Assembly (NCBI RefSeq): GCF_004010195.1
Contig: NC_057718.1
Coordinates: 90,687,353 to 90,751,352 of the forward strand
Length of the DNA: 64,000 nt
Direction of reading: 5' to 3'
DNA from: Chiloscyllium plagiosum
Taxonomy: Eukaryota
The notes beneath the pieces are model-generated. The model was not told where the DNA came from. It searched no databases and saw only the letters and a list, made by a program, of their open reading frames with translations. Shown here one piece after another: positions 3,060-44,780 of this stretch; the stretch's first letter is position 1; each line of letters begins with the position of its first letter. A program made the position numbers and the translations under genes.

Positions 3060-3235
3060 GTTAAAAGTCACACAACACCAGGTTATAGTCCAACAGGTTT
3101 AATTGGCAGCACCAGCTTTTGGAGCACTGCTCCTTCATCAGGTAGTAGGCTAGTGCTTCCAAATAAACCTGTTGGACTAAACCTGGTGTTGTGTGATTTT
3201 TAACTTTGACCACCCCAGTCCAACACTGGCTCCCC
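3060..3235. mobile_element. Short fold-back Penelope-like (PLE) derived insertion with hammerhead-like core
   Basis: Arm aaaagtcacacaacaccaggttatagtccaacaggttt pairs with aaacctgttggactaaacctggtgttgtgtgattttt; 17-bp TSD cccatctt(a/g)tgaagaga at 3043-3059 and 3236-3252; minus strand reads ctgatga-a-ggagc-agt-gctcc-aaaa. Confidence 0.75.
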
Positions 3236-3911
3236 CCCATCTTGTGAAGAGATATTTTAACCCACTGCAACACCCAATGTGTATTGTCTTTTCAATTTAA
3301 CGAATTCTGTCCTAACAAGACTGCTTGAAAATTGAACACTTGAAGAATCAAGAATTGGAATTTGCTGTTGCTGCATGACTTCAATGAGGAGTTCCGAATG
3401 GTGAAAGCTGGAGATACAAATGGACGTGACTCTGCCCCAGTCAGAGAGCGTGTGCCTCTGAAGAACTCTACTCAGATTTACTGTTGATTATTGCAAGTAC
3501 AATTTCTGCAGGAGTCTTCTTCCTTAATCAACTCTTGTCCTGCTGGAGCGCTCACTTAATCAAACATCAATATTCAATAAAAGCCTGACAATGTCTTACC
3601 CTCTAATCCTTGCATGCTTTTTTGAGAGTCAATTAAAAGGAACCTTTGTAAGACCTTCTGTGGCAATTTTGAGTTGAAATAAAGAATGAGAGGTGGGTTC
3701 TGTCCTTGATTGTACTTTGTTTAGTTGGACTGTGACCTGGTTTGTGCAAAGCCTTCGGAAATGAACTAACGTTCATCCCCAGCTTTGCATTATTGACATA
3801 AAATGTTAGAAAGATGTGATGTGACTGTCCTGGAATGTGAAAGATAGGAAATTAAACTCAGTGCCCAGTAAAATGTTGATTTGCAGCAGTGTTTATCCTC
3901 CCTTTTATTTC

Positions 3912-4135
3912 ACAGAATCCCTACAGTGTGGAAGCAGGCCATTCAGCCTACACAGACCATCCAGACCCACCCCATATTTCCCTTGGCCAATCCACTCTAT
4001 CTGCACACCTTTGGACTGTGGGAGGAAACCCATGCAGACACAGGGAGAACGTGCAAACTCCACCAGAGAGTGGAATTGAACCTGGGTCCCTAGCATTATG
4101 AGGCAGCAGTGCTAACCATTGAGCCACTGTGCAGC
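3912..4135 (-). mobile_element. HE1-type SINE
   Basis: Reverse complement of HE1 head, body and tail (agaatccctacagtgtgg ... gcagtgctaaccattgagccac). Confidence 0.88.
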
Positions 4136-4189
4136 CCATTTAATTCACTGGTGCTGGTGGTCTTGTTAAGTCACATGACATAATTTCAC

Positions 4190-4465
4190 AGCAGACAGTT
4201 AGAAGCTCAGTGCTTAAGGTAGGTCTTAAGGAGCACCTTAACGGAAAAGAGTATAAAGGCCGACAGCTGGGGAGGGTATTGCAGAGTCTGGCCAGGTGTT
4301 GGCGCAGGTGCCAATGACGGAGTCATTCAAAGTGGGTATGCACAAGAGATCGGAATTGGAAAAGCACAGATCTCTCAGGATGTTGTCCGTCTGGAGGAAG
4401 GTTTGGAACAAAGAAGTCTGAGGAGCATTGTGAAAACGAGGAGGACAATTTTAAATTACAGGCAG
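4190..4465 (-). mobile_element. Degraded L2-like LINE 3' fragment
   Basis: Resembles the L2 3' region also seen at 23330-23740 (gggagggtattgcagagt, ttttaaatt motifs). Confidence 0.45.
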
Positions 4466-4724
4466 TGATGTATTTATTGATGCCACCATATCAGAATGAG
4501 CGTTGTGATGCTCTGGAAGCTGGCAGGGCGGAGCTCCCACCAAACCAACCTTGAGACAGCTGGGTTTCTGTGGCCCTGCATAAACCTAGACAAGGAAGGT
4601 TCAGTCAGTAAGTTGGTGAGAAGAGTGTTGGAGAAACACATAAGAGAGCTAGGATTGTCCATGCTTCCCAGAGGAATTCCAATGTGCCTCTTCGCATGAA
4701 CATCTGCCTCTCCACCCCAACCCC

Positions 4725-5080
4725 ACCCCACATGTAAGTCCTGACCCAATGTGGAAGACTCTTAACTGCCCTCTGAAATGGCCTGACAAGCCATTTGAGG
4801 GAGACTAGACATGGGCAAGAACTGGGCAAGACGTTCCCTCTATACCAGGCAACATCTTTGTAAATCTCCTCTGAACCCTTTCTAAAGCTTCCACATCCTC
4901 CCTGTATTGCAGTGACCAGAACTGCATGCAATACTCCAAGTGCGGCCGCACCAGAGTTTTGAAATAATGTAGGTTAGATGGGCTTCAGCTTGGTTTCACA
5001 GGTCGGCATAACATCGAGGGCCAAAGGGCCTGTAATGTTCTATGTTTTACGCAATGCCCACGTTCCATGAAAGAAAGAGC
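4725..5080 (+). mobile_element. SINE family B 3' part, interrupted by a 5'-inverted CR1 fragment (about 4835-5048)
   Basis: gactcttaactgccctctgaaatggcct before the insertion and gcccacgttccatgaaagaa after it; the insertion is a minus-strand ORF2 piece plus a plus-strand tail ending tgtaatgttctatgtt. Confidence 0.65.
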
Positions 5081-5181
5081 TGTCTAGAATTTGGCTGCCG
5101 GAGAATGAGAAATTCAATACAGCCACTTCCTCTGGCCTTTTCAGAATCTCAATTGACTAATTGCTACTCAAGAGCAAGTAG

Positions 5182-5332
5182 ACAAACAGGAGGCTGGAAG
5201 AACACAGCAAGCCAGGCAGCCTCAGGAAGTTGTATCCAAAACGTTGACTACTCCAGCTCCTGAGCTGCCTGTTGTTCTTCCAGCCTCCTGTCTGTCCAGT
5301 TTGGATTCCAGCATCAGCATTTTTTTTTGTCT
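5182..5332. mobile_element. Short fold-back PLE-derived insertion
   Basis: caggaggctggaagaaca pairs with tgttcttccagcctcctg; 18-bp TSD ctact(c/t)aag(a/g)gcaagtag at 5164-5181 and 5333-5350; residual aaaacgttgac. Confidence 0.7.
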
Positions 5333-5529
5333 CTACTTAAGGGCAAGTAGCCATCTCCCAACCTGACACCTTACCAACCCCTCTCCTCCCCAATTAACGA
5401 TTCGTTTTATGAAATGGCACGGAGAGAGAGGAATAATCCAGCACTAATCTCAGAGGTCAGTTTTGTAGCCCTCCCGATTCCCATTCAACCTCCTCCACAG
5501 AGATAGTTGCTCTAGTCCTACTTCCTGAT

Positions 5530-5705
5530 TAGAGAGAGACAGCTCATGGTGGCTTAACCTGAGGGTCACCACATCTCAGGTGAAGCGAGAGGTTGAGCTG
5601 GAGAGTCCTTCATGGTAACCTCAACCAATGTGGGATTTGAACCCACTCTGTTGGTATCAAGCTGCGTCACAAACCAGCCATGCAGCCAACTGAGCTAACT
5701 AACCC
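5530..5705 (-). mobile_element. tRNA-headed SINE, family C
   Basis: Minus strand has agttagctcagttgg (A-box) and gggttcaaatccc (B-box), followed by a non-tRNA body. Confidence 0.6.
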
Positions 5706-5824
5706 CAGTGCAAATCATAAGCTGAAAAAGAAATCCTGCCCTGTGTACCTGCCTGAACGCTAAATGTGAGAAACTTTCCAGATCGCATTGAAAGCTTCCC
5801 AAATTATCAGAGAGCGAAGAAAAA

Positions 5825-6240
5825 GAGAACCTGCATTTGTGTAGAACCTTTCACAACCACAGAAAGTCTCAGTCACTCCACAGCCAGTGAAATACCTTGT
5901 GATGTGTAACTATTATTGTAATGTAAGGGAATGGTGTGTCCAGTATTTCTACACAAGAAGATCCTTACAATAAATGGCCACACATTGCTTGGTGGGTGAA
6001 TATTGCCCGGGGATCTTGAAGGACTGTCATGATCTTGAGAAGAACTAGATCTTTCAATCCCACCCAAGAGATGGTTAATCATCTCAAGTGAAAGGCAACA
6101 TCTCCATCTCCCCCCCCCCACCGCCACTGCTGCAGCATTAAGTCGACAGCTTAGACTTTGTTCTCAAATTTCCAGATCGAGGCTTGAACTCACAACTTAA
6201 GAGAACGAGGTGCTGCCCGCTGAGCCAGTGATGACACCAC
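5825..6240 (-). mobile_element. Old Deu-domain SINE (SacSINE1/AmnSINE-like)
   Basis: L2-type tail ctgcatttgtgtagaacctttcac and Deu-like motifs gaatattgcccgggga and catctcaagtgaaaggcaac; related copies near 41900 and 60085. Confidence 0.6.
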
Positions 6241-7169
6241 GGAAGCGTGACCAAGTCTGATCCAATTTGTCCATCTTTGCTTCAAATAAACATTCCAATT
6301 CTCAATGGTGTTGGCTGCCTCATTTGCAAAAGCAACCACCCCTCCCTCCCGCCACTCCGTGGCCATCACTCATCATTAGAGACTGGACAGTTGCAGGTTC
6401 CAAATGTTTGGGATGTGTAGAGTCAGTTGGAATCAAATGGAGTCACCATTGATGAGAAACGATTGCATTGTTCCAAATCACCTCAATGGCTCTGCAGTGA
6501 CCCCTGCTGGAGAATGTTTGCATGTGGATGCCCAGGGAGAGCACTTGGCTGGACCAAACGCACTTGCCTGAAGTTAAGGAAGGTCAAGGTTTACTAAAGC
6601 AAGTGACTGTCTGCATCACTTCAGGAAATGATGGGAGGAAGTTAGGACTCAAACGGGAACTACCATCTGCGCTGACATTATTCTTGGATGTGTGAGATGA
6701 TATAGTCCCTATTAGGAACCTAACTCTTTCTTGCATTTTAACTATCGAGGACACTGAACTGTACCATCCCGGGATTACAAGTTGACCTCAGCCAGAGCAG
6801 TGCTGCTGAGTCAGACTGATTTCCCATCATCCCTCACCATACCATGACTCTCAGAGGGCGAGTGCCATCTGTGGAGGTAAACTGATAAGATATTATGTGG
6901 CCTTTTTATTCTTTCTATGTCAATGTTTGAATGACCACTACATGAAATCACAGAGGAGATAGCACAGAAGCAGGCCATTCAGCCCAGCAGCTCCAGACTG
7001 GTGTTTATGCTCCATACGGACCTCCTGCCACACCTTCATCTCTTCCTACCGGCAAATCCTTTTCCCCTTGTGTTTATCCAGCTTCCCGTTTAATTGCTCC
7101 AGACTACTCACCTCACTAAGTTGTGGTAGTGACTCCCACATTCTAACCACTGTCCAAGTTAAGACATAA

Positions 7170-7440
7170 TCCCACCATGACAGATGGTAAAATTTGAAAT
7201 TAATAAAACACCTGAGTTGGAAATCTAATGGCTACCAAGAAACAAGATTGTTGGAAAAATCTGGTGGTTCACTAATGTCCTTTAGGGATGGAAACAGCCA
7301 TCCTTACCTGGTTTGGGTCTATATGCGACACCAGACCCACACCAACGTGGTTGACTCCTAACAGTCCTCTGGGTACTTAGCAATGGGCAATAAATGCTGG
7401 CCCGGCCAACACCGTCCTTATCCCGTGAGCAATTAAATAA
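7170..7440 (+). mobile_element. SINE family B
   Basis: ggttcactaatgtcctttagggatggaa, ccttacctgg, gtggttgactc, gggcaataaatgctgg. Confidence 0.8.
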
Positions 7441-7719
7441 TTATTCCAACAATTTGCAACTTAAAGCCCCTGCAACACCCAATAGGGGAGCCTGTTTGAA
7501 GTCATCACTGAGTTGGAATGGTCCTGTTGAGCTTGGGTGGTATCTCATGTGTGAATCATGACCTTTTCTCCCAGTGACAGAATTTCGGAATTGGGGACGA
7601 GATATCTGCACACTATTTGTAAAGCTCCACCAACTCTTCCTGACTTTGTGAAGGTCTAGCCCCCAGACACAAAGGTTTATATTCTGTGGAGAGATTGAAC
7701 GACAATGGGGTTGTCCCAC

Positions 7720-8100
7720 TTTGGAATTTAGAGCTTAATGAGGTGAATTGAGGAATGTTCCCAAAGTGTTAAGATGGACAACCATGGGGTTTGATTGGGA
7801 GAGACCGTGTCTCATTTTGGATAGTTGTGTGTTTTTTTTAAAAAAACAGATCTTTGAGGAGTGAAATTAGAAAATACTTCTTCAGCCAACGGATAGAAGT
7901 TTAAAATTCTCTTGCACAAATGGTAATTGGTGCTGGATCAGTTGTTAATTTTAAAACTGAAGTTTGTAGAGTTTTGTAATTCATAGCATATTAGGGAACA
8001 TGGGGCAAAGGCTCAGTGTCAGGTTACAGATGGTGGTTTACTGACTTGTCAGGAAAAACTGAAAGCAGTGGATGGTCTCCTCTTGTTCAAGTGTTCCTAC
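7720..8100 (+). mobile_element. Highly degraded CR1 3' fragment
   Basis: Remnants atgaggtgaattg, gaggagtgaaattagaaaatacttcttcagccaa and a CR1-like tail. Confidence 0.5.
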
Positions 8101-8216
8101 ATCCCAGCTAGATTTGAGCACTGCAATCTTGACTTGTAAAGAGGGTTGAGTAGTCACCTCTTCCTCTGGCTCCAACCGTGACACAATGTAATGTCTCCTA
8201 AAAAGTGCTGGACGAT

Positions 8217-8375
8217 CAGATCCAGTCTATAATGCATTCTTGTGCAACCCCCACGTGATAGAAAAATCACGCTTGAGAAACAGCGCTTAAAGTTATAGCC
8301 AGCACACCTTTTAGAAGTTCACACTTTAGAAACAGCGTCCCCAATTCGTCATTCGCGTTATAACAGGATGACCTG
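8217..8375. mobile_element. Probable Tc1/mariner-pogo (Tigger-like) MITE
   Basis: Imperfect TIRs cagatccagtctataatgc and gcgttataacaggatgacctg, with TA directly after the right end; internal repeat agaaacagcg. Confidence 0.45.
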
Positions 8376-10594: not shown

Positions 10595-11517
10595 TGCCCA
10601 GAGCCTCTAAGTCTGGTAGATGGCAAGGTTAGGTACTGCCTGATTAAATAGTCCTCCCCAGTTCACCGCCAACGAGAGCAGGAGCTTCATCCCTGCTGTG
10701 GGCCTTCACTTACCAATGGAATTCCTGCTAGAATATGCTGCCCTGCTTTCCATAGGATGCCAGGTCCAGTTGAATGGGCATCAGCAGCCAAATGGTTCTT
10801 ACTGGCTCAGTCTGGATGGTTAGTATTGTTAACCTCTTCAATTAGAGTTGGCATCATTTTAGCTTCTAAAGTACTCATAGAATCCCTACAGTGTGGAAAC
10901 AGGCCATTTGGCCCAACAAGTCCACACCGACACTCCAAAGAGTAACCCACCCAGGCCCATTCCCCTATCACTTGACATTTACGCCTGCCTAATGCACTTA
11001 ACTTGCACATCCCTGAACAATATGGGCAATTGAGCACAGCCAATTCACCTGATCTGCACATCTTTGGATTGTGGGAGGAAACCCACGCAGACATGGAGAG
11101 AATGTGCAAACTCCACACAGACAGTTGCCCGAGGTTGGAATCAAACCTGGGACCCTGGTGCTGGGAGGCAGCAGTGCTAACCACTGAGCCATCATGCCTG
11201 TTTCTGCATTGCAGGGATTCTATGAGTACATTGGGAACTGAAGTGATGACAGCCCTATTGGAAGAGGTTGTCAATGACAAACATCCATCTGCAGCAGTAA
11301 GAACAGCCACTTGGCTGCTGATGCCCATTCACCTGGACCTGGCACCTTCTGGAAAGCAGGGTAGCGTGTTCGAGCAGGAATTCCATTGATAAATGAAGGC
11401 CACAGTAGGGAATGATCTCTTGCTCTCATTGATGGTGAACTTGGGGAGTGGGGGAAGGGGCTGTTTAATCAGGCAGTACCTGACCCTGCCATCTCCACCA
11501 GAATTAGGCTCTGGGCA
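10595..11517. repeat. Inverted duplication (arms about 10595-10904 and 11196-11517) around an HE1 SINE
   Basis: aggtactgcctgattaaa vs tttaatcaggcagtacct; aatggaattcctgct vs agcaggaattccatt; gaatgggcatcagcagccaa vs ttggctgctgatgcccattc. Confidence 0.92.
10875..11197 (-). mobile_element. HE1-type SINE
   Basis: Full tail-to-head reverse complement of HE1. Confidence 0.9.
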
Positions 11518-12120: not shown

Positions 12121-13454
12121 TGGCTTTAGGAGCAGGGGGTTGGAGAATGTTTGGTAGCAAAAAGAACCCGTAAAGTTACAAGTGGTGACCTTTTTATTTT
12201 AGTTTAGTGTCCTGAACAGGTTTAAACTGTAATAATATGCGCATCTTCGAACATTCTTCACGCTCATCTCTGTGAGTTTTACCAAGTGGGAAAGTGCCCA
12301 AGGTGAGAGAATTTTGCAATCATACTAAGCGGGATCCAGAAATTATCCCAAGTAATTTTCCAACATCAAGCAACGTGATTTGTACTGAATAAATTCCAAC
12401 CCTGCTTTCAAATCAGTCTTCTGATGGGACACTGAAGACATCCCTCCTGTGTTATTCTTTAATATCATTTTGAGCTAAACCAGTTGCAATTAACATTTCA
12501 GGAAGAGGTGAACAGTGTTTAACTTCAGAATGGGCATCTGTCGCAATGCGAGTCTTTTCTGATTAAAATTGCCATTCCCATGTGACAGGGGCTGATAACT
12601 TGAAGCCTGCAAGACATTATTTTGACCTCATTAGCATGTCAGCACTTATTTCCAGGGGCCCGTGGTAATAGGAGGCAATTGTTTGCAAAGTCTCGAGACT
12701 GAGGTGTTCTTACAGATCACCCGCAAAATAACAATTGTGCAGCAGACTTCTCTCATTGCTTGATCGTTCTCTGAACTGCACAGCTGTCAAAATATCAGAC
12801 ATTTGGGTGACACTGCATGTCGAGGCTGCATTGCTGGACAGTTTGTTCTGGTCTGATTTCACTCAGTAGAAGGTGGGTTCAAATATCTCCATGGTGGTTT
12901 GGAGCAAACGGAAATAGTAAAAGTGACTGCGAATTGTCATTTAAAGGCACCCCCACCACAAAAAATCAGGGAAAATATAAAGTGAAGGATCAAAATAAAA
13001 TGAAAGGGCTAAAATAAGCTGTGTTCAAAGTCGTTGATGTTGACTCCCTTTTCCTTAGTCTGTTACTCTTGAGTTATTTTTCTTTCGGTGTGTGTGTATG
13101 TTTGGAGATGGAGGAATTTCCAGTCACAAACCATACGGTTCTGGATTTTGCAATGGTTTTTCACAAGTGCGTTTTCATCAATTAAAAATTAATGAATGGC
13201 TTTGTTGTGGGGGAGGGCAAGGGTCATCTGAAACAATGCAATGGCAGGGATTTTGTGGAACCCACGCACACGTTTGGGCAGACCTTTGACTTGTAATTGT
13301 ACTTTTTTTTCTTCTTCATTCATGGAGTGAGGGCATCCCTGACGAGGCAGCATTTATTGCCCATTCCTAATTGCCCAGACGGCAGTTAAGAGTCAACCAC
13401 ATCACTGTGGGTCTGGAGTCACATGTAGGCCAGACCAGGTAAGGATGGCAGATT

Positions 13455-13579
13455 CATCAGGAAGGCTTTTGCCCGAAACGTTGACTCTCCTGCTCCTCGG
13501 ATGCTGCCTGACCTCCTGTGCTTTTCCAGCACCACACTGTCGACTCTGATTTCCAGCATCTGTGATCCTCACTTTCTCC
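13455..13579 (+). mobile_element. Short PLE-derived insertion with a split hammerhead-like core
   Basis: 14-bp TSD aag(g/a)atggcagatt at 13441-13454 and 13580-13593; inverted tcatcagg fused to ggcttttgcccgaaacgttgac. Confidence 0.75.
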
Positions 13580-13773
13580 AAGAATGGCAGATTTCCTTCC
13601 CTACAAGGAATTAGAGAATCAGCTGGGTTTTTCCAACAATCAACAATGGATCTGTGGTCATCGTTAGACTCTTAATTCCAGTATTTTAAAAAATTGAGTT
13701 CAAATTCCACCATCTGCCATGGCAGGATTCAGACCCAGGTCCCCAGAACATTCCCTGGGTCTCTGGATGAACA

Positions 13774-14375: not shown

Positions 14376-14395
14376 GAGGTAGACCAAGAAACCTG

Positions 14396-14562
14396 AAACA
14401 AACACAGGCAATGCTGGAGAAACTGAAGAAGAGGCATACTGGACTCAAAACGTTAACTCTGTTTCTCCCTCCACCGATGCCACCAGACCTGCTGAGTTTC
14501 TCCAGTATTCTGCATTTGTTTCAGATTTCCAGCATCTGCAGTATTTGACTTTTAATTAAGGA
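14396..14562. mobile_element. Short fold-back PLE-derived insertion with hammerhead-like core
   Basis: 10-bp TSD aagaaacctg at 14386-14395 and 14563-14572; aatgctggagaaact pairs with agtttctccagtatt; ctgaaga-a-gaggc-atactg-gactc-aaaa-cgtt at 14423-14454. Confidence 0.7.
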
Positions 14563-16430: not shown

Positions 16431-16682
16431 CCTGCCAGAGGCAACAGCCACCAAAACCACCACAACATTCTTCCATCCATTCTTCATAAATGACTCAGCG
16501 ACTGACCTACATATTTGTCTTAATCTTTATCTTATTTTTGCATTTGTGTGTACTGTGTTATTATTTCTTCCAAATTTGGTACTAATAAACTCTTTTGTTA
16601 GCTCAACTCAAGAAAGTTTGGTTAAATTGGTTTTTATGTCCAGGAGAATGATATCCACAAGGGAAGGAAGTCTTTATAAATG

Positions 16683-16835
16683 TTAAAAATCCCACAACAC
16701 TGGGTTATAGTCCAACAGGTATTTTTGGATTTACTAGTTTTCGGAGTGCTGCTTCTTCATCAGGTGATTGTGGGGCAGATTCATGAGACACAGACTTTAT
16801 AGCAACAGGATTGCAACATTTACAAATGTTGTAAC
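16683..16835 (-). mobile_element. PLE 3' terminal fragment with hammerhead-like core
   Basis: Same family as 3060 and 29309; minus strand reads ctgatga-a-gaagc-agc-actcc-gaaa at 16763-16739. Confidence 0.7.
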
Positions 16836-17624: not shown

Positions 17625-19065
17625 AACTGGAGGCTGGCTAACATGGTGCCACTATTTAAGAAAAGGGGTAAGGAAAAGCCAGGGAACTATAGACCAGTGA
17701 GCCTGACATTGGTGGTTGGCAAGTTGTTGGAGGGAATCCTGAGGGACAGGATTTACATGTATTTAGAAAGGCAAGGACTGATTAGGGATAGTCAACATGG
17801 CTTTGGGTGTGGGAAATTGTAACTTACTAACTTGATTGAGTTTTTTCAAGTAACGAAGAGGATTGATGAGGGCAGAGCAGTAGACGTGATCTCTATGGAC
17901 TTCACTAAGGCATTTGACAAGGTTCCTCATGGTTAGCCCAAGGTTAGATCACATAGTATGCAGAGAGAACTAGCTATTTGGATACAGAGCTGGCTCAAAG
18001 GTAGAAGACAGAGAATGGTGGTGAAGGGTTGCTTTTCAGACTGGAGGCCTGTGACCAGTGATGTGCTACAAGAATCGATGCTGGGTCCACTGCTTTTCAT
18101 CATTTATATAAATGGTTTTGATGTGAACGTAGGATATATGGTTAGTAAGTTTGCAGATGACACCAAAATTGGAGACGTAGTGGACAGCGAAAAAGGTTAC
18201 CTCAGATTACAACAGGATCTTGACCAGATGGGCCAATGGGCCAATGAATGGCAGATAGAGTTTAATTTAGATAAATGCAAGGTGCTGTATTTTGGAAAGG
18301 CAAATCAGAGCAAGACTTATGCACTCAATGGTAAGGTCCCGGGGCGTGTTGCTGAGCAAAGAGACCTAGAAATGTAGGTTCATAGCTCCTTGAAAGTAGA
18401 GTCGCAGGTAGACAGGACAGTGAAGAAGGCATTTTGTATGTTTTCCTTTATTGGACAGAGCATCAAGTGTAAGTGTTGGGAGGTCATGTTGCGGCTGTAC
18501 AGGACATTGGTTAGGCCACTTTTGGAAAACAGCATGCACTTGTGGTTTCTCTCCTATCGGAAGGATGTTGTGAAACTTGAAAGGTTCAGAAAAGGTTTAC
18601 GAGGATGTTGCCAGGGTTGTAAGTTTTATCCTATAGGGACAGATTGAATAGGCTGGGACTGTTTTCCCTGGAGTGTTGGAGGATGAGGGGTGACCTTACA
18701 GAGGTTTATAAATTGTTGAGGGCCATAGGTGGGGTGTATAGCCAAGGTCTTTTCCCTGGGGTCGGGGTTTCCAGAACTAGAGGGCATAGATTTAAGGTAA
18801 GAGGGGAAAGATTTAAAAGGGACCTGAGGGGCAATGTTTTCATGTAAAGGGTGGTGAGTGTATGGAATGAGCTGCCAGAGGAAGTGGTGGAGACTGGTAC
18901 AATTACAGCATTTAAAAGGCATCTGGATGGGTATATGAATAGGAAGGGTTTAGAGGGATGTCCAAATGCTGACAAATGGGACTAGATTAATTCAGTATAT
19001 CTGGTCAGCATGGACAAGTTGGACTGAAGGGTCTGTTTCCGTGCTGTACATCTCTTATGACACTC
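17625..19065 (+). mobile_element. HER1/CR1 LINE, 5'-truncated (~1.44 kb), disrupted RT ORF
   Basis: PGNYRPVSLT, DFTKAFDKVPH, SKFADDTK, RGDLTEVYK and VWNELPEEVV motifs with stops and frameshifts; 3' tail similar to HE1. Confidence 0.93.
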
Positions 19066-19382
19066 TGACTCTTTCACCTCTGGACTGAAGTCACGTTGGC
19101 CAGACCGGGTGAGAATGGCAGGTTTCTGTCCCCCAAGCACATTCCTGAACCAATTGGGGTTCGACAACTCACTGACTTTGTTGTCACTTTTACAGGTATC
19201 AGACTTTGAAAAATAAATCATTTATTCAAATTCTTCACTGCCAAAGCTTGGATTTAATGCTTGCATTCTCTGGATTGTGTAACCAGTGTTATAACTATTA
19301 CTCTTCAGTAATGTTCAATTATAATTGACATTTGGAAGAAGACGGTAAATATCTCCTTAGCCCATACAGGAAGCATTTAATT

Positions 19383-19712
19383 CATAGAATCCATATAGTG
19401 TGGAAACAGGCCCTTCAGCCCAACGAGTCCACACCAATCCTCTGAAGAGTAACCCACCCAGACCCATTCCCCCTACCCTATTACTTTGCATTTACACCTG
19501 ACCTACACGTCCCCAAACACTATGGGCAATTTAGCATGGCCAATTCACCTAACTTACACATCTTTGGATTGTGGGAGGAAACCAAGGCACCCAGAGGAAA
19601 CCCACGCAGACACGGGGAGAATGTGCAAACACCACACAGTCACTCGAGGTTGGAATTGAACCTGGGTCCCTGGTGCTGTGAGGCAGTCATGCTAACCACT
19701 GAGCCACCGTGC
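19383..19712 (-). mobile_element. HE1-type SINE
   Basis: Full-length reverse complement. Confidence 0.9.
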
Positions 19713-23059: not shown

Positions 23060-23275
23060 GGCGAAAGTGAGGACTGCAGATGCTGGAGATTAGAGTTGAG
23101 AGTGTGGCGCTGGAAAAGCACAGCAGGTCGGGCAGCATCCGAGGAACAGGAAAATCGATGTTCCAGGCGAAAGGCCTTCATAAGAAATGAGGCTGGGAGC
23201 CTTGGGGGTGGAGATGTAAATGGGAGGGGGTGGAGCTGGTAGCTGAGAGGGCGATAGGTGGATGGAGGTGGGGGT
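23060..23275 (-). mobile_element. PLE 3' UTR/terminal fragment
   Basis: Closely similar to 26300-26520; hammerhead core degenerate. Confidence 0.75.
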
Positions 23276-26275: not shown

Positions 26276-26294
26276 AAAGATGATTCAAAGGCTA

Positions 26295-27240
26295 AAGTCA
26301 AGACTGCAGATGCTGGTGATTAGAGTCGAAAGTGTTGTGCTGGAAAAGCACAGCAGGTCAGGCAGCATCCGAGGAACAGGAGAGTCGACGTTTCAGCCAA
26401 AGGCCCTTCATCAAGAATGAGGCTTGTGAGCCAAGAGAGTGGAGAGATAAAGGGAGGAGGGTGGGGCTGGAGGGAAGGGAGCTGAGAGTGCAATAAGTGG
26501 ATGGAGGTGGGGGTAATGGTGATAGGTCGGAAAGGAGGTTGGAGTGGATAGGTAGGAAGGAAGATGGACAGGTAGGACAGTTCATGAGGGCAGTGCCGAG
26601 TTGGAAGTTTGGAACTGGGATAAGGTGGGAGGAGGGGAAATGAGGAAACTGGTGAAGTCGACATTGATGCCATGGGGTTGGAGGGTCCCAAGGGGGAGGA
26701 TGAGGCATTTTTCCTCCAGGCATTGGGTGGTTAGGGAGTGGCGATGTAGGAGGCCCAGAACCTGCAAGTCCTTGGTGGAGTGGGAGGGGCAGTTGAAGTG
26801 TTTGGCCATGGGGCTGTGGGGTTGGTTGATGTGGGTGTCCCAATGATGTTCTCTGAAGCGCTCTGCGAGTAGGTGTCCTGTCTCCCCAGTGTAGAGGAGA
26901 CCACATCGGGAGCAATGGATACAGTAAATGACATGTGTGGAAGTGCAGGTAAAGCTCTGATGGATGTGGAAGGCTCCTTTGGGGCCTTGGATGGAGGTGA
27001 GGGGGGGAGTGCGGGCGCAGGTTTTGCAATTACTGCGGTGGCAGGGGAAGGTGCCAGGACGGCAGGGTGGGTTGGTGGGGAGCCTGGACCTGACAAGGGA
27101 GTCGCGGAGGGATTGGTCTTCACAGAAAGCAGATAGAGTTGAGGAGGGAAATATATCACTGCTGGTGGGGTCTGTTTGTAGGTAGCGGAAATAGCGGAGG
27201 ATGATACAATGTATGCGGAGGTTGGTGGGGTGGAAGTTGA
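26295..27240 (-). mobile_element. Penelope-like retroelement, 5'-truncated: GIY-YIG endonuclease C-terminus plus 3' UTR
   Basis: Hand translation of the minus frame ending at 26582: GTFPCHRSNCKTC..FTCTSTHVIYCIHCSRCGLLYTGETGHLLAERFREH..MAKHFN..LEEKCLI..GTLQPHGINVDF; hammerhead-like motif at 26383-26420. Confidence 0.9.
26383..26420 (-). ncRNA. Minimal type I hammerhead ribozyme-like motif (C3>U variant)
   Basis: attc-TTGATGA-agggc-cttt-ggct-GAAA-cGTC-gact, with palindromic ACGT stem III and a GUC cleavage triplet. Confidence 0.55.
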
Positions 27241-29254: not shown

Positions 29255-29985
29255 TCCATCACTTCTGAAGTACTGCGAGCAGTTTTGGTCCCCTTACTTT
29301 AGCAAAGACGGTAGCCATGATGTGGGGGGAGCCGGTGTTGGACGGGCATGGACAAAGTTAAACATCACACAACACCAGGTTATAGTCCAACAGGTGTATT
29401 TGGAGGCACTAGCTTTCGGAGCGCCGTTCCTTCTTCAGGTAGCTATAACCTGGTGTTGTTTGATTTTTAACTGTAGCAAAGATATTATTTCATTGGAGGC
29501 AGTTTGGAAGAGGTTCACTAGGATGTCCCCCTGCCCGTGTATGGAGGGATTGTCCTATGAACTAAAAGCCGACCAACGTTGGGAATCTACTCAGTGTAGT
29601 TTCCGAGGAATGAATGGTGATTTCATTGTAACATACAGGTTTCTTAAGGGGCTTGACAAGGTAAATGCTGAGAAGGTTCTTCCCCTCCATGGGAGAGTCT
29701 GGGAACAGAGGGCACAGTCTCAGAATAAAGTGGCACCAATTTAAGATTGTGATAAGGAGGATTTTTTTCTCTCAGTGGTTGAGTGTTTGGAATTCCTTAC
29801 CACAGAGAGATTTGGTGGCAGAGTCCTTGGGTATATTTAAGATTCTTGATGAAGAAGGGGAGTCCAGGATTATGGGGAAAGGGCACGAAAACACACAAGA
29901 AGAATGTCATCTTGTTGAATGGTGGAGTAGACTCAAGGGGCTGAATAGCCTCCTCCTGTTCCTGTTTCTTGTGGTCTTGTATTCT
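29255..29985 (+). mobile_element. CR1 LINE 3' fragment interrupted by a PLE-derived insertion
   Basis: YCEQFWSPYFSKD before and IISLEAVWKRFTRM after the insertion; VWNSLPQR. Confidence 0.85.
29309..29473. mobile_element. Short fold-back PLE-derived insertion with intact hammerhead core nucleotides
   Basis: TSD tagcaaaga at 29300-29308 and 29474-29482; acaacaccaggttatag pairs with ctataacctggtgttgt; minus strand reads ctgaaga-a-ggaac-ggc-gctcc-gaaa at 29438-29414. Confidence 0.75.
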
Positions 29986-30462
29986 TGTAGCCCCTGCAGT
30001 GCCCACCCCTCTCTAAATGCCTTGAGGGCATTGGTTCTTCTGCTATTTTCAGAGTTCTGTTTCTGCCTCGCATGGTTTGTGGTGGAATGCAGCCTTCATC
30101 CCCGATGAATGAGGCACCTTGTGGAGTTGCCGCTCCACCTCCCAGGCACTGGCACCCAGCGACACGCCAACCGGCCTTCCACCCATTCCACGTTGGAAAT
30201 ACATTCTCTGTGCGACGGCTCAAAAGGCCAATAAATAAGTCTTAACCATCAAAAACAAAATGGAGGAGGGAGAAGCTGGATAAAGATTGGCAGTGGGGGA
30301 GAGTTCAGTTCTTTGGGACATGTTTAATTGTACTTACCATTTTAAATGTGTTCCTGGGTATTGAAAGGTTATCAATAATCAATATCTACATCCCTTTCAA
30401 TGTTCAGACAAGGATACAGGTTACCATGTGCCAAGAAAGTGCCAAGGGCTAGCTGGCAGACA

Positions 30463-30760
30463 TAGGGTGGCACGGTGGCTCAGTGGTTAGCACTGCTGCC
30501 TCACTGCGCTAGAGACCTGGGTTCAATTCCCACCTCAGGCAACTGTCTGTGTGGAGTTTGCCCATTCTCCCCATGTCTGCGTGGGTTTCCTCACCTAGTC
30601 CAAAGATGTGCAGGTTAGGTGAATTGGCCATGCTAAATTGCCCGTAGTGTTAGGTGAAGGGGTAAATATAGGTGAATGGATCTGGGTGGGTTGCTCTTCG
30701 AAGGGTCGGTGTGGAGTTGTTGGGCTGAAGGGCCTGTTTCCACACTGTAAGAAATCTAAA
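30463..30760 (+). mobile_element. HE1-type SINE
   Basis: Full HE1 motifs. Confidence 0.9.
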
Positions 30761-30895
30761 AATTTCAGCCAGGAGCAGTCGACTCAAATCAGTTTTCTTT
30801 TGGGGCTCTGTATAGGTCCTCCAACAATTTAGCCGGGGGGAGTGTATTCTTAATGGTGTGAGTTTGTGGGGCTGCAGCAGAGATGTATCCACAAA

Positions 30896-31380
30896 GGGCA
30901 GCACGGTGGCTCAATGGTTAGCACTGCTGCCTCACAGTGCCAGGGACCCAGGTTCAATTCCCACCTCAGACAACTGTCTGTCTGGAGTTTGCACATTCTC
31001 CCCGTGTCTGCGTGGGTTTCGTCTGGGTGGGCAGCACGGTGGCTCAGTGGTTAGCACTGCTGCCTCACAGTGCCAGGGACCCAGGTTCAATTCCCACCTC
31101 AGGCAACTGTCTGTCTGGAGTTTGCACATTCTCCCCGTGTCTGCGTGGGTTTAGTCTGGGTGCTCTGGTTTCCTCCCACAGTCCAAAGATATGCAGGTTA
31201 GGGTGAATCGACCATGCTAAATTGCCCATAGTGTTCAGGGATGTGTAGGTAAGGTGTATTAGTCAGGGGTAAAGGAAGAGTAATAGGTTAGGGAATGGGT
31301 CTAAGTGGGATACTCTTTGGAGGGTTGGCGTGGACTTGTTGGGCTGAAGGGCATGTTTCCATACTGTAGGGATTCCACTC
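30896..31380 (+). mobile_element. HE1-type SINE with a 133-bp tandem duplication of its 5' head
   Basis: 30896-31028 vs 31029-31161, 3 mismatches by hand. Confidence 0.92.
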
Positions 31381-31797
31381 TAAGTCACCAATTGATGGAT
31401 CTCACCTGATTAAGGCCTGCTCCCTCTGAAATGCAGCGTTTCATGGGCTTGTGCAACAGAATGTGAGCTGGTTATGTATATGGCTGGCCCCTAATTTTCC
31501 TGACTCTGTTTTGTGCTTTCATGATGGCAGAGAGTACGTTCCATGGTGTGTCAGTTCAGTGGCTCTTCCTTCCTCGATCAGTGACCGGTGGAGAAGGGGT
31601 TTCTGAATGGGCAGGGAGAGGGAAAGGGGCAGAGTGGCGGACAGAGACTCCATCAATCCTAAACCACATGAGAGCTGGAGCTTTCAACCTTGCGTTACCC
31701 TTCGGGCCCTCTCCTTCGAAATCAGTGAATTGGTGCTGTTTGCTTTTCCACAGGGTTTAAGTGAAATGAATTCACCGTTTTTTTCATTCTTTTGCAG

Positions 31798-31874: not shown

Positions 31875-31917
31875 GTAAGTCATAGCTTCCTTTTGTCACC
31901 ATCATTCTAATGTTAAA

Positions 31918-32031
31918 GTTTTGGATGGAATCGTCGACTTCTCCACCTCCTGGTGCTGTCTGGCTTGCTGTGTTCTTCCAGCCTCCTGCCTGTCTACCTT
32001 GGATTCCAGCATCTGCAGTCTCTTTGTCTCT
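31918..32031 (+). mobile_element. Short PLE-derived insertion 44 bp downstream of the SLC24A3 exon end
   Basis: 14-bp TSD attcta(a/g)tgttaaa at 31904-31917 and 32032-32045; same family as the right arm at 5235-5332. Confidence 0.75.
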
Positions 32032-34520: not shown

Positions 34521-34774
34521 GTACAACCGTGTCTGCTATTTGCAGAATCCTCTTGAAATCTCATCTCATCATTGTTGCTTCGGAGGCCTTTTCAAGAACG
34601 ATTTAAGAGAGAGTCTGGCTGATCAGACCCTTTGAAAGATTACTGCTGAGAGTTGCAGTGAAAGGTAAAATCCTTTCGCTTTAGCTTTCCTGTTGTCTTG
34701 TGAGAAACAGAGAGTTCAGATCATTGGGCGATCAGAGGGACTGGGTCTGAACTTGAGGAAAATTGGATCAATTA

Positions 34775-35280
34775 GAGCATCATACAGTACAGAAACAGAC
34801 CTTTCAGTCCAACTCATCCATGCCAATCAGACATCCCAATCTGACTTAGTCCCATTTGTCAGTACCTAGCCCATATCCCTCTAAACCCTTCCTATTCATG
34901 TACCCATCCAGATGCCTTTTAAATGTTGTAACTGTACCAGCCTCCACCACTTCCTCTGGCAGTTCATCCCATACACGCACCACCCTCTACATGAAAAAGT
35001 TGCCCTTTGGGTCCTTTTTAAATCTTTCCCCTCTCACCTTAAACCTATGCCCTCTAGTTTTAGACTCCCCTCCCAACCGTAGAAAAAAGACCTTGTCTAT
35101 TTATCCTATCCACGCCCCTCATGATTTTATAAACCTCTATAAGGTCACCCCTCAGCCTCCGATCCTGCAGGGGAAACAGCCCCAGCCTATTCAGCCTCTC
35201 CCTATAGCTCAACCCCTCCAACCCCTAGCAACACTTGTAAATCTTTTCAGCACCCTTTCAAGTTTCACAACATCCTCCAT
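34775..35280 (-). mobile_element. HER1/CR1 3' fragment
   Basis: Reverse complement of the 18560-19065 region. Confidence 0.9.
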
Positions 35281-38425: not shown

Positions 38426-38774
38426 AATGTAATCCGAGGGGGATCTACGTTTTTAAAGAATGACCTTGCTGGCTTCCAACAATGCGGAACAGTCAGAGTC
38501 ATCTGCAAGAACAGAATGGAGATGCCCGGTCCCCACTCCACCTTAGCTGCCCTCGTCCTCCCATCCCACCTAGGCCCGGAGCAATTAGAGAACTGATTCA
38601 AGTCCCGAATGCCAATCCTGACAAATATCAAATTTATCCTTCTGAGAGATGTGGAATACAAGAGGAACGTTTGTCAAAGCTCCAAATCCATCAATTGCAA
38701 ACAAGATGGACATCAACTAAATAAATAAAAATCAAAGTGTGAGCAGAACTGATTCACCAAGACTTCAGGGTCTT

Positions 38775-39920: not shown

Positions 39921-40589
39921 AATACGGTCTTTGTCAGAACAAATCTCATTGTGCGTTATTCAAAATGAAACAATTGGCACCTATTGGCAGCCATTCCCTT
40001 TGACCAGGCCCGACAGTGAAGGGACAATGTTGGAACGTCAGGAGAATGAGAATTGATTCCTGTCCTCTGCTCACTAGCAATATTTATGAGAATTGGAGGT
40101 CAGTTGTAAAGCACTCTGAAAGAAGTCAAAGTGGCAAACATTCGAAGAAAAAGTTCACACAGAACTTCAATTTGGAACAAACAAATTAGAATTGGCAGTC
40201 AACTCGCTGTTTGCTGACTTTGGCCACTGAGGTCCAATGCTGGTTTGTAACTGATGCCAAAAATTCCAAACAACCCTTTGGTGGCAAGGGATTGACTCTT
40301 AACAGCATGTTTGTTTTCTGCTTTCACCAGTCTGTTCTCTGGTCGTGAAGAAAGGGAAGAGAGAGAGGCAGTGTGCCAGCCTCCTTGTCCATTAAATCCA
40401 CAATCTGTCCGCCAGAGCACTTTCTCTGTAGTACCAGCCCCGATGAGACTGATTATTCTGCAGAAAGGAACAGCCAGCAGCCTCTGATAGATCCAGACTG
40501 GGTCCATGTGCAATGAGGTCTTCCTCCAGCTATTCAGAGATGTTGCTGGTTTATCAAGGACTGCAGATGTCAAGGCCATTCTGATATTT

Positions 40590-40942
40590 CATAGAATCCT
40601 AGAATCCCGATAGTGCGGAAACAGGTCCTTCAGTCCATCAAGTCCACACCTACTCTCTGAAGAGTAGCCCGCCCAGACCCATTCTCCTATCCTATCGTCC
40701 TATATTTACCCCTGACTAATGCACCTAACCTACACATCGCTGAACACTATGGGCAATTTGGCCTGGCCAATCTACCCTAACCTGCACATCTTTGGATTAT
40801 GGGAAGAAACCAGAGCACGTGGAGGAAACCCACGCAGATACGGGGAGAATGTGCAAACTCCACTCAGGCAGTTGCCCGAGGCGCGAATTGAACCCAAATC
40901 CCTGGCACTGTGAGGCAGCAGTGCTAACCACTGAGCCATACG
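40590..40942 (-). mobile_element. HE1-type SINE
   Basis: Full reverse complement. Confidence 0.9.
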
Positions 40943-41899
40943 TTTGAGAAGGTGGGGGTCCATCTGATGTTGGGCTGAACTCTGAGTGGCATGCAGAAGG
41001 CAGTGAGCCACACTGGAGCATTCCACAGTGGGCGCTGTGTGGGTCAGGACGTCGTTGCGTGCCTTTGAGATATCCAGGAGCAGTTTGCAGCCCTGCCTGT
41101 TAGGAGATGGCACGCGTCGTCGGTAGGTCATGGGGAAAGAGTCGGATGGGCTGGTGGATGGACCAGTAGCTTGCTCCTACACGCTGTCCAATCATTGCAT
41201 GTTGGTTGGCCTGTGTCCTCGGATCTGCAAGTTGTGAAGCTCAAATCGCTCCCCTCAAAAACACTGTTCGTGGACAGGCCTTAGCTGGACACAAGATGCT
41301 GTGCTCTCCATTTAGTTGCCAGTCCTTAGCACAGGTCTGAGCTTTGAAAGGGCAACTCGAAGACAATCTGTGGACAATGTCACCGTCCCAGGGACCAGCA
41401 AGGTTGGATTTAGTCGTGTTAATGTCTTCAGACACAGGACAAAGAAACCTGCCTACCAATTTTTTGTGTTCAAACTAGGCAACAGCATGGAGGAGAACAG
41501 GTGCATTCTCCATGGCAACACCTTGACCCCATCAGGACCAATCAGCACCCTTTCCTTCAGTTGTATGAATTGTTGATATCCCTTTGGAGTTTTGCTATTC
41601 TTGTGTGTGTCCTGATGAAACAAGAATCTCCAACAATACTTAAGTCATACTATAAATTCTGCTAGAGTAAGGGGGTGGGGTAGGTGGGGAAAGAGGAAGG
41701 ATAGTGAATTCAGCATTGTAAAGGCTGGCTTTCGACCAGATATTGATTAATAACAAAATGTCATTGTTACCATCCTCACACAGTGCCCACACAGAGCAAG
41801 CCAGTGTAAAAGAGGAATCTCAGCGTCGGAACTGCGAGAGGCTGAGCATGTTGCTAAGAAGCGAATTGTGATGTTTTACAATGGACCAAGAGAAAGTAA

Positions 41900-42275
41900 A
41901 ACATTCCCTTGTAAAGGATTATCGTGGCTTCAGTCATCCCAAAGGGTTTCACAGCGACTGAAGTACATTTGAAGGGACACTGCTGTTTTGTAGGCAGAAG
42001 CAGCGGCTGACTGAGGGGAAATCTTGTACTAACAATGAGGTGGTTGATCAGATGATTAGTGTCAGTGACATTGGCTGAAGGATAAGTAATGCATTAGGTA
42101 TAAATCTCTGTTCTTCTTTAAAGGAGAAAGCTCTTTTTGCATCTGCAAGGCTTCGGATTTAACAAAGGGGAGGGCACCACTCACTCAAATGTCAGCCCAG
42201 GTCATGCCGTTGAGTCTCTGGAGCGGGAGTCGAGCTCACAGCTGTCTGTCTCGGAGGCAAGAGCGTGACTGACAG
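41900..42275 (-). mobile_element. Old Deu-domain SINE
   Basis: Similar to 5825-6240 and 60085-60470. Confidence 0.5.
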
Positions 42276-43124
42276 GGAATACCAAATTGGCTGGGGGTGG
42301 TCACACCCTCACCACTAGCAAATCGGAGTGAAGCAGCCAGTTGCCATGCTGATGGCAAAGATCAGATGGCCTGGCTGGTTGTGGGAGCTCCCTCTAGCAC
42401 GTCTCATGAATTATTGTGTTCGGCTGTACGTGTCCTCCAGGACTTTGCTGCTTGGAACGAGGTGAAAATTTGAGATTCCCGAGCAGGAGCTGGCATCAGA
42501 AGCAAAGCCTTTGGAGGGACAGGAACATCGACACAAAGAGAAGCTCACAGTGGGGTCAAGGACAGCTGCTGCGAGGGCAAACTAATCAGAGAAATTCTCA
42601 CCACCGATTTTAAAACTGTAACATAACAGGACAAAACTTGGACAAGCCAACGTAGTCTAAGTCCATTGCTCTCGCTGTCACGAAAAGTACTTGATTCCTC
42701 AGCAGAAACAGAATTTGAATTGAACTCCCCTCCCCCTCCCTGAAAGGAAGCGTTGTAACCATCAGCCTCAGATTTCGGGGTCAGAGAAGCCCGGATTTGT
42801 GTTGGCGTTTGGAGGTGTGTGGAAGAGGCAAAGGTCTGGCAGAGTTACAGGGTAATGGGAGGATGGGCACATGGTGCCAGGGTACTGGGAGTCCTTGAAT
42901 GGGTTGGTAATACTGGGAATATGGAACAGCAGCTTGGAACATTAGGAGAGGCATTTGGGATGTGGGAATACCGAGAGGAAATCAAGAGTCAAGAATGCGA
43001 GAAAGAAGGGGGATTGGGAATGTTTCTGGGGTTCTAGAGATGGGGAGCAAAAAGTGGGCCCAAGATTGTTTGAGCACTGCACAGGGCTGAATTTGAAACA
43101 CCAAAAGAGGTGCAAATGGTAAAT

Positions 43125-43670
43125 AGAGTCATAGAGATGTACAGCACAGAAACAGACCCTTCAGTCCAACTCGTCCATGCCGACCAGATATCCTAACCTA
43201 ATCTAGTCCCATTTGCAAACACTTGGCCCATATCCCTCTAAATCCTTCCTATTCATATACCCATCCAGATGCCTTTTAAATGCTGTAATTGTACCAGCCT
43301 CCACCGCTTCCTCTGGCAGCTCATTCCACACACGTACCACCCTGTGCGTGAAAACGTTGCTCCTTAGGTCCTTTTTAAATCTTTCCCCTCTCACCTTAAA
43401 CCTATGCCCTCTAGTTTTGGATGCCCCCCCCCAACCCCAGGGAAAAGACCTTGGCTATTTACTCTATCAATGTCTCTTATAAACCTCTATAAACTTCAAC
43501 CTCTCCCTATAGCTCAACCCCTCCAACCCTGGCAACATCCTTGTGAATCTTTTCTGCACCCTTTCAAGTTTAACAACATCTGTCCTATAATAGGGAGACC
43601 AGAACTGAATGCAGTATTCCAAAAGTGGCTGTACAGCCACAACATGACCTCCCAACTCCTATATTCAATG
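43125..43670 (-). mobile_element. HER1/CR1 3' fragment with internal deletions
   Basis: LLEYCIQFWSPYYRTDVVKLERVQKRFTRMLPG; VWNELPEEAVEAG. Confidence 0.92.
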
Positions 43671-44290
43671 GGAGCAGGATGTCAAAAATCTGTGAAGGAG
43701 TACCTTGGAGTAGCACACTCAATGAAAAGTAGACAACACAAATTGGGAAGCTAACAGGAAAGGCATGATGGGAAGTTGGTGTGTGACACTCACAAACAGT
43801 GAGCTGTACACAGCAAGCCAGGTATAGTGATGCACATATATGATCCACAAAGCATAGCTGTCAAACTTCATCTGTAATTAGAGTTGGCATCCCTAATGGA
43901 ATGGCTGGGTGTCTACAGGAATCAGCATCAACCTCCTGATGGCTATTGAAAGAATCTGGGAAATTTTCAACTGAAGGAAATAAATTATTGCACATTTATC
44001 ATCCATCGGGTAATTACACAACGCTGATCTAATTGTGTACTTGGCAGGATGATGTAAAATGTAAAGCAGTACAGAGCTCATGATTATTGTTCCCTTCCAT
44101 TTAAACTACAGATGAACGCAAGGTATAAAAGGGCTGTACTAGTATTAGCATGCAGTACATTGAAAGTCATACAGATCGATTGAGGCTAGCTTATATTTTT
44201 ATAAATTGAAACTATTCGGAGAATTGGTGAGAATTTATCCAGGAGGCTTTAGTTGGCATGAAGTGGTGGATAGAGGTCCTTTGAGTATTA

Positions 44291-44780
44291 AAGACTGAAA
44301 GAACTGCAGATGCTGTAAATCAGAAACAAAAACAGAAGTTGTTGGAAAATCTCGGCAGGTCTGGCAGCATCTCTGGAGAGAAATCAGAGTGAACATTTCA
44401 GATCCAATAGACAATAGGCAATAGGTGCAGGAGTAGGCCATTCGGCCCTTTGAGCCAGCAACACCATTCATTATGATCATGGCTGATCATCCTCAATCAG
44501 TGTCCTGTTCCTGCCTTATACCCATAACCCTTGATTCCACGATCTTTCAGAGCTCTATCCATCTCTTTCTTGACCTCCACTGCCTTCTGGGGCAGAGCAT
44601 TCCATATATCCACCACTCTCTGGGTGAAGAAGTTTCTCCTCAACTCTGTTCTAAATGGCCTTCCCTAGAATGGAGGTTCAGTTCTGAGGAAGGGTCACCG
44701 ACCCGAAACACCAATTCTGCTTTCTCACCACAGATGTTGCCAGACCTACTGAGCTTTTCCAGCAACTTCTGTTTTTGTTC
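44291..44780. mobile_element. Fold-back PLE-derived insertion with hammerhead motif and a nested CR1 tail (about 44406-44665, minus)
   Basis: Perfect 13-bp TSD cctttgagtatta at 44278-44290 and 44781-44793; aacaaaaacagaagttg pairs with caacttctgtttttgtt. Confidence 0.82.
44680..44716 (+). ncRNA. Hammerhead ribozyme-like core with a perfect stem II
   Basis: agtt-CTGAGGA-a-GGGTC-acc-GACCC-GAAA-cacc-aatt; stem III/cleavage site differs from the cgtt/cgtc seen in sister copies. Confidence 0.55.

Follow-up and report, generated by a model that had tools for sequence, protein, structure and literature searches.

Penelope-like elements (PLEs) that encode an endonuclease (EN+ PLEs) insert as compound units, described as a pseudo-long terminal repeat (pLTR), an adjacent inverted copy with variable 5' truncation and a one-sided tail of 30-40 bp (PMC8557442, PMC3846280). 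Metazoan PLEs carry minimal hammerhead ribozymes, for which a cleave-and-circularise model has been put forward and which have been noted before as opposite-strand pairs 100-700 bp apart (PMC4209133). The function of the PLE hammerhead has been called unclear (PMC8557442), as the regeneration of the pLTR and its promoter has been called unexplained (PMC2377424). In vitro work on PAc (Poseidon, Anolis) described two internal tail starts, priming of both strands and no need for ribozyme cleavage; in the text consulted, the in vivo 5' ends, start site and poly(A) site are not mapped (PMC11167929). This report concerns hammerhead-bearing short repeats in a 64,000-nucleotide (nt) stretch of the Chiloscyllium plagiosum genome (contig NC_057718.1, positions 90,687,353 to 90,751,352), hereafter the window, and the place at which their 5' ends accumulate.

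Self-comparison of the window revealed short repeats, many of them head to head, at all the places where a first-pass annotation had reported inversion and truncation breakpoints clustered at the ribozyme core. They resemble EN+ PLE units in their head-to-head arms, tail on one arm, target duplications, pLTR hammerhead and GIY-YIG-type coding remnants, and the elements themselves are of this known kind. Offsets below are counted from the C of CUGANGA (position 0), with negative values upstream. Unlike in the descriptions of EN+ PLEs, two thirds of the arms reaching +10 end here at one G-bearing edge, in Neptune-type families only. The pile-up just upstream of the core is real and beyond chance, and it probably arose from complementary DNA (cDNA) that was begun in the 5' pLTR tail and ran off the capped end of the RNA, with the hammerhead merely adjacent. 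The annotation had proposed that the folded or self-cleaved ribozyme defines the insertion boundary; the pile-up does adjoin the core, but its cause looks like the RNA end rather than self-cleavage or a stall at the fold. What this analysis adds is a measurement of the hazard, a family that serves as negative control, the distance from promoter box to edge, the signature G and a poly(A) site. A literature search, which left subscription papers and Fig. S2 of PMC11167929 (PAc genomic coverage) uncovered, found no cap-G edge, pLTR poly(A) site or strong-stop products for PLEs.

Element families and the position of their 5' ends

Four families (A-D) account for the copies in the window, and the genome sample added a fifth, E. 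The pLTR of all five holds a minimal type I hammerhead motif, with its core, its stem II and complementary strands for stem I, arranged in the order CUGANGA, stem II, GAAA, two-base palindromic helix III and short stem I. Hammerheads with the same core, a long stem II with a bulged base and a palindromic two-base helix III have been described from metazoan PLEs (PMC4209133). An Rfam scan of the window reported no hammerhead family, and its microRNA-hairpin match on the palindrome at 3068-3195 scored under the gathering threshold and was set aside as chance. By standard hammerhead geometry, the 3' product of cleavage starts at +27 to +30, depending on the family. Copy numbers are very high, with 17,212 (young B subfamily) and 18,460 exact anchor matches; the genome measures 3.56 Gb. 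In addition, one upstream sequence occurs identically four times before a D-type core (G000:C1:17780684, 22201798, 27151096 and 85387059), which suggests a further subfamily or another repeat with the motif. Non-LTR retrozymes are built of head-to-tail tandem units with a hammerhead in each (bioRxiv 10.64898/2026.07.22.740005); this identity was rejected, as the window copies are solo or head to head, not tandem.

Long copies of A, B and E have, directly upstream, remnants of open reading frames (ORFs) with YIGET or YIGQT and CCHH-like residues. The Pfam GIY-YIG model matched one of five such remnants (E=0.01, under the curated cut-off), and of the RYIDD-bearing remnants that adjoin family B copies, candidates for a telomerase-like RT part of the ORF, the single one run against Pfam gave no match. 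C-x4-C-x2-C lies just ahead of the endonuclease domain (EN) in the sampled stretches L052 and L083 (A) and L085, L115 and L174 (B). A Cys motif in the linker between reverse transcriptase (RT) and EN is given as the mark of Neptune and Nematis (PMC8557442), by which A and B appear to be Neptune-type; C and D are placed with them provisionally, solely through their likeness to B. Family E (L090, L042) has no Cys motif between LPY and EN, and its ATG frame starts at +6, inside the hammerhead, as in PAc, and stays open through the E1 tail; E is therefore a putative Penelope/Poseidon-type, PAc-like family. The B and C consensus sequences have an ATG at +44/+46, a candidate ORF start; in B1, By, B3 and C, its frame continues to the end of the tail without a stop.

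The distribution of 5' ends was measured in 160 stretches of 10 kb (1.6 Mb) taken at fixed positions, blind to 5' ends. Arms were detected by the region 3' of GAAA only, and their 5' ends were then called against subfamily yardsticks made from long copies (sense-only for family E). The 403 initial matches gave 398 arms after a score threshold of 50 and de-duplication (372 in A-D and 26 in E), of which 40 and 9, respectively, were censored by N, stretch end or yardstick end. An initial homology search was biased to core-holding copies and was therefore kept for the long-copy yardsticks, the pooled end-base table and the 3'-end histogram, not for the hazard. Among A-D arms reaching +10, 193/285 end within -10 to +10, a hazard of 0.044 per nt (4358 at-risk nt). 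This is 10.6 times the hazard upstream (-145 to -11; 36 ends in 8650 at-risk nt, 0.0042) and 8.1 times that downstream (+11 to +50; 72 in 13108, 0.0055). The peak is present separately in each of families A-D, and inverted arms with unambiguous junctions peak at the same place as the other arms. In the young B subfamily, 34 of 57 arms were called at -7 to +4 and 11 were longer, two further calls at -11 being aligner overshoot of ends at -5; in family A pairs, the position most often reached by the longer of the two arms is -9. Simulated uniform truncation was recovered without a false peak. The proposed clustering near the core thus holds genome-wide; a uniform spread of junctions, named beforehand as the outcome that would speak against it, is not what the sample contains.

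A different origin for such a peak would be fixed-length, non-autonomous elements copied from short masters that begin near the hammerhead, as in short interspersed elements (SINEs). The very high copy numbers and a few recurrent junctions fit this idea. However, junctions vary from copy to copy even among near-identical young copies, the same subfamilies contain long copies running into the ORF, and among solo arms in the peak the upstream flank is unshared in 70/74 and shared in only 4. Furthermore, the short copies (minis) lack the upstream box described below and would therefore be dead ends. Short masters are thus considered a very unlikely source.

Self-cleaved RNA as template, with cDNA running off at the ribozyme cut, predicts ends at +27 to +30. 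In pooled A-D, the ratio to flanks at +26 to +32 is 1.57 and not significant (p=0.07), exactly +28/+29 shows no significant excess (p=0.24), and 18 ends lie near the cut compared with 193 at the edge. Family B alone has a small bump at +26 to +32 (15 ends, hazard 0.0105 against 0.004-0.006 beside it), and the solo family D arm at 46862-46914 (minus strand; 5' end +29) is the sole arm in the window to start at the predicted cut site. Most arms hold the whole core, and the template of those arms was therefore uncut. Our read alignments, from libraries not suited to cleavage, showed no read starts or ends piled up at the predicted cut. For PAc, hammerhead mutants are reported to insert normally in vitro, with no RNA-seq reads ended at the cut (PMC11167929). 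Self-cleavage, as the annotation had suggested, is refuted as the main cause and is barely credible as the general origin of the templates; it may contribute a minor route.

Family E provides the contrast within the same genome. Its core and stems are intact, and only 3/23 of its ends fall at -10 to +10, compared with 193/285 in A-D (Fisher p=3e-7), with 0/30 in further arms. The pile-up occurs in the Neptune-type families and not in the PAc-like one.

The edge and the paired arms

The upstream limit of the peak is sharp and falls on a CA dinucleotide, whose A has the offset -8 in family A and -4 in the other three. Taking this A as the predicted +1, a conserved promoter-like box precedes it by 30-32 nt in A (TATAAA), 31-33 nt in B and 31 nt in C (TTTATC or CTTATC in both). 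A pLTR-resident promoter is known for Penelope of D. virilis (PMC2377424), and TATA/initiator-like motifs have been noted in Adineta pLTRs (PMC3846280). The edge tracks the TATA-to-CA spacing and bears an extra G, both of which speak against the hammerhead as its cause. A splice acceptor as the origin of the edge was rejected, since the edge lacks an AG in B and A1 and the flanks counted above have no upstream exon in common; the intron of D. virilis is described as ending at helix I (PMC4209133). An alternative hammerhead topology that would cut 5' of the core was also dismissed, as by inspection no stem can form.

The extra G was tested on the base before the predicted +1 A wherever it is not the consensus C, using hand counts and Fisher tests; the patterns skip the quarter of sites excluded by their leading letter. 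In family A, the first 100 of 1367 matches listed gave G86/A6/T8 at the edge, compared with G38/A27/T35 at a control position (-6; first 100 of 627 matches listed; p=2e-12). In family B, the corresponding figures among the first 100 matches listed were G56/A27/T17 at the edge and G39/A23/T38 at the control position 0 (p=0.023). Sorting the family A rows by hand left 31 G's for which the partner arm is not the template, against 14 rows with another base; in three of the pairs listed, both arms have the G. In L1, full-length insertions of capped RNA are marked by an additional G at the 5' junction, and the joins here also resemble those of 5'-inverted L1, in which two primed ends are united in inverted orientation through microhomology (PMC11702581). 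The systems differ in that L1 primes at the poly(A) tail and its inverted parts are adjacent and non-overlapping, whereas the two arms here are copies of one region, each begun at an internal start.

The 3' ends of arms fall into two groups, at +80-100 (short) and +115-124 (tail), and 75 of 80 pairs combine one of each. This matches the two internal RT starts and two-strand extension of PAc; as with PAc, two starts delimit the tail, both target strands are extended and the RNA template is uncleaved. By 5' reach, 74 pairs have both arms short, four both long and two mixed, where 9.4 mixed pairs would be expected, and this concordance points to a property of the template. Directional fold-back, in which the tail arm would always reach further, found no bias in its favour (27 versus 40, 8 ties). 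In hand counts among the matches listed, inverted-pair gaps measured 44-85 nt in 16/20 cases in family B and 35-74 nt in 11/16 in family A, while 0/18 were under 140 nt in family E; the gap ceiling in A and B equals the length expected from double run-off.

The inverted repeats of the hammerhead (TTC/GAA, stem II and the palindromic helix III) might in themselves create the cluster, through fold-back or annealing between cDNAs. Young B pairs do share a recurrent junction with a 72-nt gap joined via TTC/GAA, a micro-inversion at 13456-13460 in the window lies between such repeats, and family E has palindromic joins at -28. Partnerless solo copies, however, have their peak at this edge too, the hazard is low where stem II and helix III are situated, and annealing explains neither the G nor the hard upstream limit. 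As the sole basis of the cluster this is highly improbable, and the ribozyme palindromes may instead fine-tune junctions through microhomology. Several junctions are of interest in their own right. Independent young B inverted pairs in L203/L204 and L282 share an identical long-arm junction with a 297-nt anchor gap, which marks either a hot spot for microhomology or a unit that was copied again. Family E junctions in L238-L240 fall at a 10-base palindrome (-28 to -19), near the start predicted from its TATA box. In L208 (~1390-1620), the sequence ahead of a B copy with its 5' end at -3 continues ~20 bases beyond the tail in open frame, the structure to be expected if the template was switched once the RNA 5' end had been reached.

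A boundary could also be set by an uncut hammerhead, folded or bound by protein, if RT were released after unwinding it or if a 5'-3' exonuclease trimmed the RNA to the edge of the fold. Several observations would suit such a boundary: in four families the peak is no more than 10 nt away from the core; the first base of stem I, at -3/-4, matches the edge in B, C and D; many of the 5' ends in family A are at -4 to -2; and no start site was mapped in the RNA reads. In family A, however, the G-marked edge at -8 is 5 nt beyond stem I. A stall, as the annotation had proposed, should occur as RT meets the fold from its 3' side, a place of low hazard, whereas the peak is on the far (5') side, past the point at which RT has already copied the fold. 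A stall at each pass also predicts mixed pairs, of which only the two were found, and family E has a hammerhead and no peak. Overall, a boundary imposed by the fold is judged unlikely.

Run-off from the capped RNA end would proceed as follows. A promoter in the pLTR would start a capped RNA 4-8 nt ahead of the hammerhead, the edge being the probable RNA polymerase II start; the ribozyme would lie within the first 30-40 nt, and the RNA would be uncleaved when copied. The protein would cut the target, and both target ends would prime cDNA, presumably each from a different tail start, as PAc does in vitro. The cDNA would run 90-130 nt to the cap and add a C, the extra G then being a copy of the cap. 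Both cDNAs would reach the same RNA end and lose a few bases by trimming; joining the two together would give an inverted pair, and joining to the target a solo copy, in many cases via microhomology. For family E, we assume copying mainly from the 3' pLTR of read-through RNA, which would give ordinary spread truncation. Such templates, linear, uncut and with their end immediately 5' of the ribozyme, differ from those of the cleave-and-circularise model, in which a circle would fit only the minority of long copies.

Transcripts and the strong-stop comparison

RNA evidence comes from one sample, a single-cell poly(A) run (X22) whose species label is that of the run containing all sampled words of the window. 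On a long family A copy (L262), 3300 reads aligned, with a strong sense-strand bias in depth up to ~+60. Poly(A) loose ends were found in 396 reads at +57 and 475 reads at +60 (L262:1529-1532), 12-15 nt past ATTAAA and ahead of a GU-rich stretch. AATAAA or ATTAAA is kept in 128/166 family A arms spanning the position, while only 3/176 genomic family A arms end at +55 to +64, none of them followed by an A-run. These sites precede both RT starts (+85 and +120). A polyadenylated 3' end without either start site means that initiation would have to be at the 5' pLTR. Family A transcripts may include host read-through. No reads aligned from a second run (X23), and a depth step at about -9 to +6 on a family B copy, seen on both strands, mirrors the structure of the genomic copies and is uninformative on the start. 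The window equivalents of the family A poly(A) site lie inside 3149-3241 and 29317-29442, and scattered family A copies could serve host transcripts as poly(A) signals.

Several observations weigh against run-off from a capped end. Neither read alignment showed sites where many molecules begin, and the start is one that we infer. The pLTR consensus sequences of B1-B3, C and D, and likewise E, have no poly(A) hexamer, so the argument for forced initiation holds for family A only, in one sample. The box in B and C is non-canonical, and none was found for family D, which has only two long copies. With regard to the G, the excess is modest in family B, and the C/D count (43/100 among matches listed) is a raw figure without a matched control that becomes 37/74 once 22 mutated long copies and a recurrent sequence filling four rows are dropped. 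In family A, the partner arm can be the template for many of the 86 G's, and any RNA end could gain an extra G without a template. In family E, TATAAA is present at -48/-53 without a peak or a G, so that the assumption of read-through templates is needed; at the single start tested (-18 in E2), no start or G was found among 229 matches, mostly mutated long copies. As for the measurements, omitting a subfamily consensus can fake a peak (49 versus 15 of 150), though upstream flanks are shared by only the 4 of 74 solo peak arms given above, and mixed pairs with one very long arm escape pair detection.

Retroviruses and long terminal repeat (LTR) retrotransposons, which use a transfer RNA (tRNA) primer and an integrase, make minus-strand strong-stop DNA by virtue of their U3-R-U5 layout. 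Family A would be comparable in having an upstream promoter box, a start-to-poly(A) stretch that would lie at both RNA ends, a priming region at the 5' end only and a short run-off cDNA. It has no tRNA primer, integrase or true LTR, and priming is probably by the cut target, by which the short cDNA would be integrated at once. As the ORF remnants are of GIY-YIG type, the comparison is one of function, and membership of the LTR retroelements is not claimed. By this analogy, minis would be the integrated equivalents of retroviral strong-stop DNA.

A bolder and more tentative proposal, which we rate as possible but somewhat doubtful, is that Neptune-type pLTRs are functional U3-R-U5 units, with the mRNA running from a capped start directly ahead of the hammerhead to a poly(A) site shortly past the 3' hammerhead. 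RT could then start only at the 5' end, first yielding target-primed strong-stop cDNA, most of which would integrate as minis. Long and partial-tandem copies would need a jump of the cDNA to the 3' copy of R; alternatively, the two R-borne hammerheads might pair, cleave and circularise the RNA. If true, this arrangement would supply a mechanism for regenerating the pLTR and its promoter, and a role for a dimer-dependent ribozyme.

Run-off at the capped end would explain the abundance of 90-130-bp hammerhead stubs in such genomes. Tens of thousands of genomic junctions would then record what the template was: a linear, uncut RNA, likely capped, on which copying began close to the 5' end. Two clades in the one genome (Neptune-type and Poseidon-type) contrast clearly in this record. 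Single-base predictions follow, namely a start at -8 or -4 and, in family A, poly(A) at +57/+60.

Copies in the window and neighbouring repeats

Sixteen arms were mapped in the window, of which five start at -10 to +10, six at +17 to +36 and two past +50, and three are long; target duplications flank six of seven insertions. Most of the junctions cited by the annotation hold, and the three long copies that run contrary to its picture had been left out. These are a solo family A copy at 16679-16815 (minus; 5' end -51, short 3' end), which retains a TATA box (16801-16796), a predicted start at 16771 and an intact core (16763-16739), and two family B copies, at 23063-23275 (minus; 5' end -101) and 26294-26673 (minus), the latter extending to -260 or further and so taking in the last part of the endonuclease coding region.

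Family A forms two pairs. In the first, flanked by an 18-nt target duplication that starts at 3043 and 3236, the minus arm (3059-3146; 5' end -5, short 3' end +82) has CUGAUGA from 3141 and a mutated GAAA, and the plus arm (3149-3241; tail 3' end +118) starts at +25, just past GAAA and 4 nt short of the cut, in agreement with the junction described near 3145. In the second, the minus arm (29317-29442; tail 3' end +120) has an intact core (29438-29414) and starts at -4, or up to -7 with microhomology, as had been noted near 29441; its plus partner (29443-29472) covers +53 to +82, with target duplications at 29296 and 29470. Family C contributes a pair with target duplications at 5164 and 5333, made up of a minus arm at 5178-5230 (+36 to +88) and a plus arm at 5236-5326 (+17 to +115), and a plus arm at 31928-32024, which starts at +19 to +23 with filler ahead and has target duplications at 31904 and 32032. 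The annotation had placed the starts of the plus arms near 5230 and 31920 around stem II.

The family B plus arm at 13452-13576, which sits inside another repeat (target duplication at 13441 and 13580), starts at -4, the predicted +1 A. The inverted piece seen at 13455-13461 is real, but it is best read as a 5-nt micro-inversion (13456-13460) between TTC/GAA inverted repeats rather than as a fusion to stem II. For family D, the plus arm at 14423-14536 starts at 0, as proposed, although the overlap with its short minus partner (14389-14424; +69 to +104, a weak alignment with score 22) is the 2-nt CT, not aact, and that partner starts far from the core. The remaining family D pair has a common target duplication at 44278 and 44781 and comprises a minus arm at 44298-44399 (5' end +22, tail 3' end +123) and a plus arm at 44678-44779 (5' end -6, TCAGTT; intact core 44684-44708; 3' end +96). 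Other repeats at 44400-44677 separate the two arms, probably as a later insertion. The start claimed for this plus arm near 44665, about 20 nt before the core, was not borne out: homology begins at 44678, and the preceding bases belong to the inserted repeat and filler.

Elsewhere in the window, a GC-rich tandem array with a period of ~52 (26) bases and a strong strand skew occupies 54016-56586. An abundant dispersed SINE-like repeat of ~300 bases occurs in both orientations (2345-2609, 10855-11198, 19370-19712, 30460-31384 and ~15 more places). A second dispersed repeat, of 500-600 bases (18354-19064, 34773-35276, 43125-43670, 47205-47708 and 61168-61692), probably represents 3' fragments of a long interspersed element (LINE).

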